The notes beneath the pieces are model-generated. The model had not been told where the DNA came from. It searched no databases and worked only from the letters and a program-made list of their open reading frames with translations. A program made the translations under genes and the position numbers. From positions 1,757 to 65,756 of the IMG/VR virus record IMGVR_UViG_3300025030_000013: a DNA stretch of 64,000 nucleotides, one strand, 5' to 3'. This document shows, piece by piece, positions 32,029-34,814 of the stretch. The stretch comes from a virus. Its lineage: Duplodnaviria > Caudoviricetes. The number at the start of each line of letters is the position of its first letter. Position 1 is the stretch's first letter.

Positions 32029-32613
32029 TTATTTTAAGTACCTTATGGGATCGACGGCAACCCCCTCCTTCCTGACCTCAAAGTGTAGGTGCGGACCCGT
32101 TGATATACCCGTACTTCCACAACTACCAACTCTTGAACCTGCGATTACGGGATAACCAACTTTCACAGATAACCCACTTAGATGACCGTATAAAGTCTCG
32201 ACTCCATTTCCATGATTCACAATAATCATATTTCCATAAATATCATCCCAACAAACCTTAATTACGTCTCCCTCCCAATACGAAGTTACGGGAGTTCCTG
32301 CGTTGGCGGCTATATCAATTCCATGATGATCCACGCCATTGAAGTATTTTGTTATCTTACCTTTCATTGGTAGTTCATTATTACCTTGACCAATATTTGA
32401 TATTTTTTCAACCGTTCCTTGAATTGAATCTATCCTTGCGTTTAATCTTTTTAGGGTTGGAGTAAGGTCCTGCATAGTAGTCAACAACCCCAACATAATA
32501 GCCACCATTGCCACTAAATTGGCTAGTTGCTTTCTCTCTACGGCAATAAGGATTACATAGGCCACAAAAGACGCTACCGCAATAAATAGTATATGAAAAA
32601 TACATAAAGCCAC
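32029..32613 (-). CDS. M23 (LytM) peptidase with SpoIIIAC-like two-TM N-terminus
   Basis: HHGIDIAA, YGHLS, STGPHLHFEVR; N-terminal TM-(ERKQLANLV)-TM hairpin. Confidence 0.85.
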   Translation of the reverse strand: MALCIFHILFIAVASFVAYVILIAVERKQLANLVAMVAIMLGLLTTMQDLTPTLKRLNARIDSIQGTVEKISNIGQGNNELPMKGKITKYFNGVDHHGIDIAANAGTPVTSYWEGDVIKVCWDDIYGNMIIVNHGNGVETLYGHLSGLSVKVGYPVIAGSRVGSCGSTGISTGPHLHFEVRKEGVAVDPIRYLK

Positions 32614-32614
32614 A

Positions 32615-32851
32615 TCACATCACGCCTGCCGTAAATTCGAAGAACTTCTTGAGCAACTGCCACGCTACGGCTACTACCGAAAGGATAGCGACAATTATAG
32701 TTGCTGTTCTTAACATTCCTGCGACCTGCCCCTTATTTACTGCTCCTAATATTAACTCCCCTAACCAAGATCCCACACCAAGCATAACTAAGATGATAAT
32801 TACGAATCCCGGCTTACCTGGTCCGAATACCTCCCTTGCTGCTTCTGCCAT
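32615..32851 (-). CDS. SpoIIIAC/SpoIIIAD-like small membrane protein
   Basis: TM-ILGAVNKGQVAGML-TM-LLKKFF, same architecture as SpoIIIAC. Confidence 0.6.
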   Translation of the reverse strand: MAEAAREVFGPGKPGFVIIILVMLGVGSWLGELILGAVNKGQVAGMLRTATIIVAILSVVAVAWQLLKKFFEFTAGVM

Positions 32852-33500
32852 TTAAGCATTCCTCCTTTATTTGATCTAACGAATAAACACGAAATTCAAG
32901 ATTATGGACATTCTCTTTATCAATTTTCTCCTTGATAGACTTAACTCTTCCGGTAGTCACCACAATAATAGCAGGGAATCGCTTGGATAAAGGAACCCAC
33001 CATTGATTCATATAGGCCCCTGAACCAAAAAGATCGTTGTATTTTTTAACCTTCTTGGAAAAATCATTTCCGCTTTTACCAATATCCATTTCGACGAAAT
33101 AGAAATACATAGCATCTTGCCATAGATTATTTATCCCCACAAAAGCATCCGGTCGAATAGTCTTGTAATCCTTAATCTCCCTGTCAAAACAATGAAGTTT
33201 TTCCATATTGGAGAGAGTTGTGTTTATCCAAGTGAAGACCCATGACACGCCTAGAACATGCTCTAATTGACCCGGCCTACGATCTAGGTAGTAATGATAT
33301 GGTTCACCTAGTCTTAGTCTGTCACGATTGATTTTAGCGTGTGGTGGAGTGGACAAGATAGTTAGTCGACGCTGAACTATACGTAGGCAATTACCCTTGA
33401 ATAAGAGAAGGTGAACCATATCTGTGGTTAAGACTGTTTGGGATTCTAGCATGTCGATTAGCTCCCTATCGCGGCGACAACATTTTGCGTGGTTGTTCAA
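32814..33500 (-). CDS. replication-relaxation (Replic_Relax) family nuclease
   Basis: wHTH (LTTDMV..L.F..VQRRL), LEHVLGVS, IRPDAF, YFVEMDIG, KVKKY, FPAIIVVT. Confidence 0.8.
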   Translation of the reverse strand: MNNHAKCCRRDRELIDMLESQTVLTTDMVHLLLFKGNCLRIVQRRLTILSTPPHAKINRDRLRLGEPYHYYLDRRPGQLEHVLGVSWVFTWINTTLSNMEKLHCFDREIKDYKTIRPDAFVGINNLWQDAMYFYFVEMDIGKSGNDFSKKVKKYNDLFGSGAYMNQWWVPLSKRFPAIIVVTTGRVKSIKEKIDKENVHNLEFRVYSLDQIKEECLNGRSSKGGIRTR

Positions 33501-34599
33501 TCTTTATCAACTCGCTTCGTGCAATCATTGGTCTATTGTTATAGAGTTTTATCGCTTCGTCTGGTTCCAGTAATAATGTTTGGACTTCTAATTTATCAAG
33601 ACCACATTTATAGATAGCCCTGCCTTTTATTGCAGGGAGGTGTGCCGCCTCATCGCTGTCTAAGATCATCCTGGAGTTAATTATATCGGCCACAACAAAA
33701 CATATCCTTCCGAGAAACATTGCCTTTAGATCACCAAACTTTTCAAACACTTTGGAGGATGGTCTCTGCGTGGCTGCAATTACATGTACTCCAACAAATC
33801 TCCCCATCCTTAGAAGCCTCCATAAGCTGTCTTGTGCATCTTCTGGCAAGTCTGCCCACTCATCTATAATTAGGACTATATAGGGCATCTGGTGGCCTTT
33901 CTCATGGTATTTTTTTATCTTAGCGCATGATGCCGACTTTAGAATCTTCTTTCGCTTATCCATCTCTTTATTCAGTGACTCGAACAAACCCTTAACCTGA
34001 CTCATTTCATCTACTACTAAAGCCATTTCATTAAGATAGTCAAACTCAGTCGATTTAGGGTCAATGATAATCAAGTTGGTGTCCGGTCTGTAAAGGAGGA
34101 TTGAGTTTGCGATAACATGGAGTTGATTCGATTTTCCATAGTTCGTTTCCCCGGCTGTTAGTAGGTGCGGATACTCCACAAGGTCCCTGACTATTAATCC
34201 TTTGGCGGATATTCCTATCGGGATAGGTAATTCCATCTTGGAGTATTTAGTGTGATCGAAAAGAGAATATGGGTATTTCTTTTTAAGTTCTTCGGTTATT
34301 ACCTCCATCGTAATTGCCTTGCCATGCTTTTCTATGTGGACGGAACCACCTGTAGCGTCTGAAAATAGATTAGTTTTCTTCTGGAAATCAGTAAACCCGG
34401 TACCAGGAGGAAGATAAATAGTAAACGTCCACACTTCTCCTTTTTTTGACTTGTGGATAATCAAGGGTTTAAGCTCATCCTTGGAGTATAAGGCGTTAAT
34501 GCAATCCTGAACCGCAGCGTGAGCATCATTCCCTTTTCGATGCAACCAAAGTGATTTAAGTTGGTCCCTTACTTCCTCTATTGCGTTTTGTTGCTTCAT
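33466..34599 (-). CDS. FtsK/SpoIIIE-family ATPase (no N-terminal TM)
   Basis: PHLLTAGETNYGKS, IIDPK, LIIDEWADL, ATQRP, GRAIY. Confidence 0.9.
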   Translation of the reverse strand: MKQQNAIEEVRDQLKSLWLHRKGNDAHAAVQDCINALYSKDELKPLIIHKSKKGEVWTFTIYLPPGTGFTDFQKKTNLFSDATGGSVHIEKHGKAITMEVITEELKKKYPYSLFDHTKYSKMELPIPIGISAKGLIVRDLVEYPHLLTAGETNYGKSNQLHVIANSILLYRPDTNLIIIDPKSTEFDYLNEMALVVDEMSQVKGLFESLNKEMDKRKKILKSASCAKIKKYHEKGHQMPYIVLIIDEWADLPEDAQDSLWRLLRMGRFVGVHVIAATQRPSSKVFEKFGDLKAMFLGRICFVVADIINSRMILDSDEAAHLPAIKGRAIYKCGLDKLEVQTLLLEPDEAIKLYNNRPMIARSELIKIEQPRKMLSPR

Positions 34600-34750
34600 C
34601 CATCAATCCCCTTTCTATCAATACTTTCCTAAGTCCGTCTCTAATCATGTCGGCTAGTTCTCCTTCTTCAAAGCTAAGACACATAATAGCTTGCCGAATA
34701 TCCTTATCCCTCTTTCTTAACCTTGCCCTAAGGATTGATATATCTTCCAT
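34556..34750 (-). CDS. small RHH-like DNA-binding protein heading the FtsK operon
   Basis: RARLRKRDKDI...ADMIRDGLR; RBS AGGAGG. Confidence 0.65.
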   Translation of the reverse strand: MEDISILRARLRKRDKDIRQAIMCLSFEEGELADMIRDGLRKVLIERGLMDEATKRNRGSKGPT

Positions 34751-34784
34751 TTGTGTACCTCCTGGGTAATCGTTGTGTTACATA

Positions 34785-34814
34785 AAGGTATGGCGCACAA
34801 CTCGTCCAATATTA
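34785..34814 (-). promoter_or_regulatory. sigma-E-like sporulation promoter
   Basis: Minus strand TAATATT-N15-CATACCTT vs B. subtilis sigma-E consensus approx. TCATATT-N15-CATACGAT. Confidence 0.55.

Follow-up and report, generated by a model that had tools for sequence, protein, structure and literature searches.

How plasmid-like prophages and virulent phages enter endospores is poorly understood, and the idea that phage segregation genes raise spore entrapment is so far only a suggestion (PMC10294663). A leftward operon in a tailed phage (Duplodnaviria; Caudoviricetes) raises the question in concrete form: does it serve to carry a prophage into the spore, or does it act elsewhere? The operon lies on IMG/VR virus record IMGVR_UViG_3300025030_000013, of whose 65,756 bases we analysed 64,000 (positions 1,757 to 65,756, hereafter the window, whose numbering we use), and it joins an FtsK-like ATPase, a Replic_Relax protein, two membrane hairpins and an M23 peptidase.

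We conclude that the operon, together with a non-coding site behind it, is probably a module of conjugative ancestry that processes and translocates DNA and has a cis site of its own. As to where such a module would send DNA, we tentatively prefer the forespore, so that the cassette would be a conjugation-derived device moving the element's own DNA out of the mother cell. The evidence is computational throughout, and it is from gene families, predicted folds, the conservation of the cassette and its cis site, and a promoter match that we infer activities, timing of expression and destination.

A five-gene cassette

The operon consists of five minus-strand open reading frames (ORFs), whose positions agree exactly with the initial annotation, which had described them as a coupled leftward operon. 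In order, they encode a small helical protein of 64 aa, presumed to be a regulator or accessory factor (34750–34556); a soluble FtsK/TcpA-like ATPase of 377 aa (34599–33466); a Replic_Relax (MOBC-type) protein of 228 aa (33500–32814); a 78-aa protein with two transmembrane (TM) segments, hairpin 1 (32851–32615); and a 194-aa fusion of hairpin 2 to an M23 metallopeptidase (32613–32029). Successive genes overlap by 44, 35 and 38 nt and the last two are 1 nt apart, from which we take them to be tightly coupled. Pfam matched all three families that had been named (FtsK_SpoIIIE, Replic_Relax and Peptidase_M23), and the 64-aa and 78-aa proteins had no family match in scans of Pfam, PHROGs and NCBIfam. 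The whole occupies a moron slot between lysis and immunity genes, with its own predicted promoter and terminators.

A motor and a predicted nuclease with conjugative relatives

The ATPase has an FtsK_SpoIIIE domain (PF01580, E 6.5e-23) with the Walker A sequence GETNYGKS. Its best relatives in the PDB are 6o1z, 6o1x and 6o1w, entered as 'DNA translocase coupling protein' (E 3e-21, residues 111–348), which we take to be TcpA of pCW3; FtsK (2ius, 1.3e-19) and then EssC/EccC follow. FtsK, SpoIIIE, TcpA and TraB have an N-terminal transmembrane anchor. Residues 1–115 of the operon ATPase are hydrophilic and show no hydrophobic N terminus, as read from the translation without a TM predictor; by this reading the anchor of TcpA/FtsK-type coupling ATPases is missing, and the earlier description of the protein as TM-less holds.

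The third gene product matches Replic_Relax (PF13814) at E 5.1e-8 and 33.7 bits, above the cut-off of 25.3. A model built from 13 cassette sequences (predicted local distance difference test, pLDDT, 89.7) has an N-terminal three-helix winged helix-turn-helix (HTH; helices plus a beta hairpin) and an alpha/beta core, for which Foldseek returned FokI as the best match (E 8.5e-4), with EndoMS, the nickase N.BspD6I, EcoO109I and MunI; residues E108, D118, E137 and K150 are invariant in the 13 sequences. This predicted fold fits a winged HTH joined to a PD-(D/E)XK-like nuclease core. TraX of pAD1, a MOBC relaxase, is a PD-(D/E)XK relative with a winged HTH (PMC12857230), and PF13814 is listed as part of the MobC superfamily (PMC5357655).

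A coupling-protein relative and a MOBC-type fold thus bear out, at the level of sequence, the DNA-transfer ancestry that had been proposed for the operon. The cassette resembles the MOBC relaxase and TcpA/FtsK coupling modules of Firmicutes plasmids, integrative and conjugative elements and integrative and mobilizable elements (TraX of pAD1, TcpA of pCW3) in its PF13814 protein with a winged HTH and a restriction-endonuclease fold, and also in layout: in Firmicutes mobilisable elements, FtsK-like TcpA coupling-protein genes stand just upstream of non-canonical relaxase genes (PMC5357655; PMC12857230), as the ATPase gene stands directly upstream of the nuclease gene here, and those modules likewise begin with a small accessory gene and have a direct-repeat site nearby, as in pAD1 (PMC12857230). 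Unlike them, the cassette sits in a tailed phage, in the slot of an integrase, with an ATPase that reads as anchorless, an operon free of type IV secretion genes, two dedicated hairpin proteins, a hairpin–M23 fusion and a sigma-E-like promoter.

This kinship is also the main argument for a different destination, namely another cell. With its hairpins as pilin-like parts and its M23 protein as a cell-wall hydrolase, the cassette could be a mobilisation or minimal conjugation module that sends the phage-plasmid or island abroad, whether by borrowing the type IV system of a helper or alone in the manner of Streptomyces TraB/clt; we regard this as a close competitor of the forespore, doubtful as it is when taken by itself. 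The superfamily of the nuclease, the order of the two genes and the coupling protein as best PDB relative of the motor all suit it, as does the typing of Bacillus plasmids with an FtsK–Replic_Relax pair as 'mobilizable, relaxase MOBC'. On the other side, VirB4, VirB6 and VirD4 families found no match among the five operon proteins, the rest of the record not having been scanned, so that the earlier statement that VirB4 and pilus genes are absent stands for the operon and extends no further; and a tailed phage has a transfer route already. Streptomyces TraB/clt shares with the cassette an FtsK-like motor, a short direct-repeat array by the genes and small membrane proteins, but the ATPase reaches only 48 bits against the NCBIfam plasmid_TraB model (cut-off 800) and the hosts belong to different phyla. 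Besides a membrane domain, TraB possesses a DNA-reading domain of its own, and it works without a nuclease. If the cassette is nonetheless a mobilisation module, a tailed phage would have a second, conjugative route of spread.

A conserved cis site behind the operon

The gap 3′ of the M23 gene is 263 bp long and contains a conserved cis site that is new here, being absent from the list of the initial annotation; no ORF covers its repeat array in the window. On the minus strand, a 22-bp block, TTTTAGCTTGTACATCAGTCGT (31945–31924), is followed by four direct repeats, GCGACCGAT, GTGACCGAT, ACGATCGAT and GTGACCGAT (31918–31870), of the form GYGACCGAT or ACGATCGAT, and then by a hairpin and T run (31859–31820), the probable end of the operon transcript, which has a 13-nt loop and was not reported by the terminator scanner. 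In 10 cassettes (alignment A9) the second hairpin gene is followed by the block and an array of four units, and the hairpin with its T run keeps its pairing through changed bases in locus L001 and is replaced by a different hairpin in the same place in L008.

The repeat unit differs among cassettes and is alike within each, being of GCGACC type in the window, L044 and L047, of GCGAAC type in L006 and of ACGAAT type in L042. Variation between cassettes with uniformity within them is what one would expect if a co-evolving protein reads the site. We regard the 22-bp block as a candidate cleavage or recognition site and the array as a candidate protein-binding array, akin to the bind site of an origin of transfer (oriT) or clt-like. 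Small ORFs encoding 'DQVSD/DQVND' repeats in four loci (L044:1899-2096, L047:8663-8854, L049:12476-12589 and L056:12831-12983) are translations of the 12-bp-period repeat array and probably not genes.

Repeats beside transfer genes again suit passage between cells. Streptomyces clt is a repeat array next to transfer genes, and direct-repeat arrays are typical of centromeres as well. The oriT of pAD1 offers a parallel, TraX binding five direct repeats 70–120 bp from the nick site (PMC12857230).

A centromere-like array suggests a further function, the maintenance of an extrachromosomal prophage in dividing cells by partition, dimer resolution, septum clearance or auxiliary replication initiation, for which the cassette would supply a DNA-binding protein, a repeat 'centromere' and an FtsK-type motor. 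The operon adjoins a Rep O-like gene, 22-bp iterons and a coiled-coil HTH gene, PHROGs labels the Replic_Relax matches 'replication initiation', and the authors of phage Novomoskovsk read the same gene set as remnants of plasmid replication and segregation (PMC9658697). Partition, however, has no use for a pair of membrane hairpins or for an M23 peptidase outside the membrane, and the FtsK–Replic_Relax pair also occurs in a protein-primed phi29-family phage (Salasmaviridae) and in integrated elements, where the function is not needed. Nor is the first gene supported as the ribbon-helix-helix (RHH)-like gene it had been called: the 64-aa protein, conserved in 8 cassettes, has no family match, its AlphaFold2 monomer model is all-helical (H2-25, H31-46, H52-58; pLDDT 81.2), and Foldseek found no PDB match for the model. 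The strand of an RHH protein can form only in a dimer, and the monomer model is therefore not decisive. We consider maintenance unlikely.

The conserved, co-varying site in the cassette indicates that it acts on DNA of the element itself, and this weighs against yet another function, lysogenic-conversion defence or superinfection exclusion, in which an ATPase–nuclease pair stationed at the membrane would intercept foreign DNA. A moron slot with its own promoter and terminators would be in keeping with such a role; the ATPase matches the FtsK-like parts of the SspH (E 4e-24) and mad8 (E 1e-23) defence models, and HamA, Shedu and Can2-type nucleases resemble the Replic_Relax model in fold at weak scores. 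But PADLOC gave no match to the nuclease or hairpin 1, the ATPase matches are to the generic FtsK domain, and the hairpin–M23 protein has a single weak match, to a 4TM 'Effector' model (E 0.0027). We rejected a known defence system on these matches, and defence of any kind is improbable in our view. Maintenance and defence both account for fewer parts of the cassette, and family precedent favours transfer between cells.

Paired membrane hairpins

The 78-aa protein and the N terminus of the M23 protein each show two hydrophobic segments among relatives (Kyte–Doolittle), and profile comparison of the two hairpin sets (A7 against A3) reached 90.7% at E 1.3e-6; judged by these profiles, the operon's two hairpins are paralogues. 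The M23 domain (PF01551 Peptidase_M23, E 2.8e-32) has both HxxxD and HxH, as read from the translation. It is optional, with hairpin-only second genes in four loci (L006, L048, L049 and L056). The profile of the 78-aa family drew 90 proteins in a word-indexed search, none with a precomputed Pfam domain, and 64 representatives in an exhaustive one, and members of the hairpin family include proteins named by their sources as from Desulfosporosinus and Desulfitobacterium.

Many distant relatives have a cleavable-looking N-terminal signal peptide ahead of the two TM segments. From this order we take the hairpins to be N-out/C-out, with the M23 domain of the fusion outside the membrane. A signal peptide plus two TM segments is also a VirB2-like layout, as transfer to another cell would have it, but TrbC and T4SS_pilin models found no match in 11 plus 61 members of the hairpin family. 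A 'TrbC/VIRB2' protein of phage Novomoskovsk, whose only domain match is a weak one to PF18895 (E 0.015), was tried as a hairpin relative and rejected as unrelated at 0.2% against the family.

Both hairpins had been said to resemble SpoIIIAC/AD. We compared them by hhalign with 35 SpoIIIAC and 35 SpoIIIAD sequences from the phylum, for which the control comparison of SpoIIIAC with SpoIIIAD gave 95.1%. The N-terminal hairpin of the M23 protein (A3, 12 cassette sequences) matched SpoIIIAC at 76.8% (E 2.1e-5), co-linearly over 54 columns. Its score of 30.6 was reached by none of 150 shuffles that kept the hydrophobic blocks (maximum 20.7), and the reversed alignment gave 2.1%. The wider hairpin set A7 gave 67.5%, with 6 of 61 members matching PF06686 (best E 2e-4), and the rank-2 cluster of an Atlas search has PF06686 on 14% of its members (score 0.84), a lead only. 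Hairpins of 65–80 aa, two TM segments, a short charged loop, the existence of two paralogues and co-linearity over 54–60 columns are common to both families. What stands of the original claim is a likeness below threshold and better than shuffles, weak to moderate in degree, and on this footing a remote kinship is plausible, with the evidence tilting slightly in its favour. If true, it would be the first SpoIIIAC/AD relative outside sporulation, and shared ancestry would link the sporulation channel to the DNA-transfer hardware of mobile elements.

The cassette also has in common with the SpoIIIAC/AD–SpoIIQ channel a LytM/M23 domain. A SpoIIQ-specific M23 was nevertheless rejected: the SpoIIQ model NF053738 gives 67.3 bits where its cut-off demands 250, and generic M23 models match as well or better, those of MepM, DipM and Pgp3 scoring higher.

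A sigma-E-type promoter motif

A promoter-like motif of sigma-E type by sequence, TAATATT-N15-CATACCTT, precedes the operon at 34814–34785 on the minus strand, as the initial annotation had it, and matches once in the window and never in 100 shuffles. It stands between the terminator-like hairpin of the upstream 183-aa gene (34859–34837, minus strand; 10-pair stem and T run), which appears to insulate the operon against read-through, and an AGGAGG ribosome-binding site. The gap from this terminator to the first gene is 86 nt, and no sigma-70-type site of at least 9 of 12 is listed in it.

The −10 octamer CATACCTT recurs unchanged upstream of spoIIIAA in four of five host-lineage genomes, where it forms part of CATGTCTAAAA-N13-CATACCTT; the fifth has CATACCAT, and these sites, which are unmapped, lie ~25–30 nt before the start codon. 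The arrangement CATGTCTAAAA-N13-CATACCTT is strongly conserved in four of the five genomes (L114-L118), ~25–60 nt upstream of spoIIIAA. The upstream regions of host spoIVA and spoIIID have TCATATT-N14-AATATACT and CATATAAA-type elements, and those of spoIIID in the L114-L118 lineage have ATGTCTTTT...CATATAAAT in common. The −35 of this lineage looks unlike the textbook sigma-E −35. In C. difficile and B. subtilis, spoIIIA is sigma-E-dependent, and sigma-E sites combine an ATA −35 with a CATA-type −10 (PMC3789822); because both hold, we take the host spoIIIAA sites to be sigma-E promoters. The sigma-E consensus used here draws in part on that paper.

We searched with the pattern [GT][AC]ATA[AT][AT], N13-15, [CA]ATA[CT][AC]N[AT], which replaced a stricter one, requiring A at −10 position 6, that had missed the window's own motif. 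With both strands of the window searched (128 kb), its one match is at the operon; over all loci it has 21 matches in 1.1 Mb. Of 26 cassette loci, 5 have it within 600 nt upstream of the ATPase gene, where 0.3 would be expected. The window, L001 and L008 keep the −35 and −10 with diverged spacers, and near-misses were seen by eye in L056, L051 and L009; other cassettes, such as those of G007 and G041, lie behind co-oriented HTH genes and have no motif. On sequence, the operon's only recognisable promoter reads as one of the mother-cell sigma-E type rather than of sigma-A type, which is a point against transfer between cells as well as for the forespore.

A proposed route into the forespore

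The two ends of the record have 127 bases in common, which marks it as a circular or circularly permuted assembly, and IMG/VR classes it as complete with direct terminal repeats. Structural, tail-fibre and lysis genes run rightward up to ~31.4 kb and are followed by the leftward block; beyond this, a cI-like gene (36776–36396) faces a cro-like gene and an anti-repressor gene, and rightward early genes follow. In temperate phages an integrase usually sits in the slot held here by the leftward block. Phage_integrase, Recombinase, Resolvase and rve models had no match in the phage record, and control genomes responded in each search. Lying 5′ of the operon are the Rep O-like gene, the iterons and the 183-aa gene; the three iteron-like direct repeats, of 21–22 bp at 22-bp spacing (35479–35543, between the other two), fit a plasmid-type origin.

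We favour the forespore as destination because of this integrase slot without an integrase match, the plasmid-type replicon nearby, the sigma-E-type promoter, the SpoIIIAC-like hairpins and the spore-forming hosts. In the sequence of events that we envisage, the winged-HTH/PD-(D/E)XK protein of MOBC type would bind the four-repeat array and nick or cut the adjacent block. The soluble FtsK/TcpA-like motor, a hexamer if it follows its family, would then engage the processed DNA. The paralogous N-out/C-out hairpins would form a membrane station, at which an active M23 peptidase, carried outside the membrane on hairpin 2, would open the peptidoglycan. Once the cell has divided asymmetrically, the machinery would in this way pump a copy of the extrachromosomal prophage out of the mother cell and into the spore. 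The most specific form of this proposal, a sigma-E-switched intracellular conjugation machine that cuts the prophage at the repeats and pumps it through a hairpin/M23 station in the engulfing septum, with hairpins that share the ancestry of SpoIIIAC/AD, is no better than an uncertain conjecture. Docking on the engulfment channel, which the initial annotation had suggested, is an inference.

A limited search of the literature found no account of a phage-encoded module for transfer from mother cell to forespore, of the cassette hairpins, of the cis site or of the promoter. The system is a bounded one, made up of five genes, a single promoter and a cis site of 80 bp, and it comes in natural variants that have or lack M23 and whose repeats co-vary.

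Distribution of the cassette

No near-identical DNA to the locus was found in phage and plasmid collections. IMG/VR has nine loci with close ATPase relatives; in the eight where the contig continues, Replic_Relax and both hairpins are kept throughout and M23 in seven. One genome contig matching the cassette ATPase is labelled a Desulfosporosinus metagenome-assembled genome. Among 103 genomes of the host-lineage order, 18 gave an ATPase match with an E value no higher than 1e-40, and at the 13 places fetched from them Replic_Relax always follows the ATPase, a hairpin-1 relative is present at nine and the full M23 protein at six. The distant-hairpin profile matched in 7 of 401 genomes of the phylum, and at six of the seven loci so found the hairpin gene adjoins a pair of ATPase and Replic_Relax genes. 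At the seventh, a long-leader hairpin gene stands alone as a second copy (L108:10089-10478, minus strand, in G433); it has no ATPase or Replic_Relax match beside it and adjoins a 142-aa gene that reads like the gene preceding the full cassette in L107. As for distant hairpin relatives, a tblastn search with P0146 found none in plasmids and phages and P0100 had none in viral contigs; two matches of P0103 in metagenome contigs were rejected as false positives, being ACT-domain-like proteins that share a short peptide only.

We conclude that the cassette moves between elements, because the surrounding 40 kb are not homologous to this phage. It often lies between phage lysis genes and the host junction, as in G041 (beside tRNA-Pro), G017 and G207, and recombinase-like ORFs stand near it in L107, L109 and L113, by a reading of ORF N termini only.

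The FtsK and Replic_Relax core, which had been said to occur in Bacillus phages, is indeed found in several Bacillus elements at 25–31% identity: the B. thuringiensis phage BtCS33, phage DLc1 (phi29-like, Salasmaviridae), phage PK2, B. cereus-group plasmids typed mobilizable/MOBC (pCE3 among the named elements), and phage Novomoskovsk, considered virulent by its authors (PMC9658697). These pairs have the same two families in the same order with overlapping genes, often after lysis genes and in spore-former hosts. Unlike in the cassette, no homologous hairpins or M23 were seen there, and some of the elements have integrases. The initial annotation had asked whether the operon is restricted to integrase-less elements; such a restriction fails because the cassette also occurs in chromosomes, some with integrases nearby, and the core in Bacillus phages of which one carries recombinases, one is reported to be virulent and one belongs to the phi29 family. 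For this pair, widespread in Bacillus phages, the cassette supplies a testable mechanism.

All 12 cassette-bearing genomes tested have spoIIIAC/AD. Gut Bacillota may have related cassettes: five short unannotated faecal 'Bacteriophage sp.' contigs (MT838992.1, MT839360.1, MT836718.1, MT837090.1 and MT835673.1) match the ATPase or the whole hairpin–M23 protein, the latter over residues 2–193 at 30% identity.

Evidence against a forespore destination

Several observations weigh against the forespore and against the sporulation ancestry of the hairpins. The first group concerns the promoter. Sigma-E promoters cannot be called from sequence alone, and our search pattern was post hoc, written when the motif and the host promoters were already known. 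The motif is lacking in 21 of the 26 cassette loci, and three of the five that have it (the window, L001 and L008) are close kin. Its spacer is 15 nt long, compared with 14 in the host spoIVA sites, and CATACCTT by itself occurs five times in the window.

A second group concerns the hairpins. PF06686 had no match in either hairpin, in 11 close members or in the 90 family proteins, and it finds host spoIIIAC/AD in 10 of 10 cassette-bearing genomes and never the cassette hairpins. Compared with SpoIIIAC, the clean profile built from the 78-aa family reaches no more than 14.1%. The tail of A7 may hold true SpoIIIAC proteins, P0139 for example, which would inflate its 67.5%. Signal peptides in many relatives further set the family apart from SpoIIIAC/AD, as does genomic location, the neighbours of the operon hairpins being the ATPase and nuclease, with the host spoIIIA loci elsewhere.

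A third group concerns the elements and their hosts. Integrases lie close to some chromosomal cassettes, at ~3.4 kb in G002 and ~1.8 kb in G045, and in a chromosome spore inheritance needs no help; occurrence in integrated elements with integrases speaks for transfer to another cell. BtCS33, with the core pair, has two annotated recombinases. That the cassette is found only in spore formers tells us little, since spoIIIAC/AD were present in 52 of the 61 genomes sampled from the phylum. Finally, we know of no forespore-side partner that would help DNA across two membranes.

Neighbouring genes and minor observations

Downstream of the cis site, a 90-aa secreted or anchored protein resembles DUF4359 (31765–31493, minus strand; 27.0 bits, equal to the cut-off). 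Its gene has sigma-A-like hexamers of its own, TTGCAT-N17-TAATAA (31821–31792), and a terminator (31490–31466), and it co-occurs with the cassette only in close relatives. We count it as a neighbour and not as part of the operon because it lies behind the hairpin terminator with those hexamers. On the other side of the operon, just after the anti-repressor gene, a 242-aa protein contains a long run of pentapeptide repeats (38306–39034).

Some distant cassettes have extra conserved genes after the hairpin–M23 gene (L050:6232-6948, minus strand; L051:12965-13696, plus strand; L054:8494-9015 and L055:6464-7114, both minus strand). The products include proteins of 170–240 aa that begin with a signal peptide and are anchored by a C-terminal TM segment, along with a CxxC zinc-ribbon protein, a TM protein of 67 aa and a lipoprotein whose sequence ends in CSVCNPPQ. 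In G007, ~10 kb past the cassette, a cluster at L042:12354-16024 (minus strand) has genes for a protein of 611 aa, for a membrane protein of 242 aa that gave an M23-like match (tblastn, E 1e-12) and for small TM proteins, and may be a separate conjugative element.

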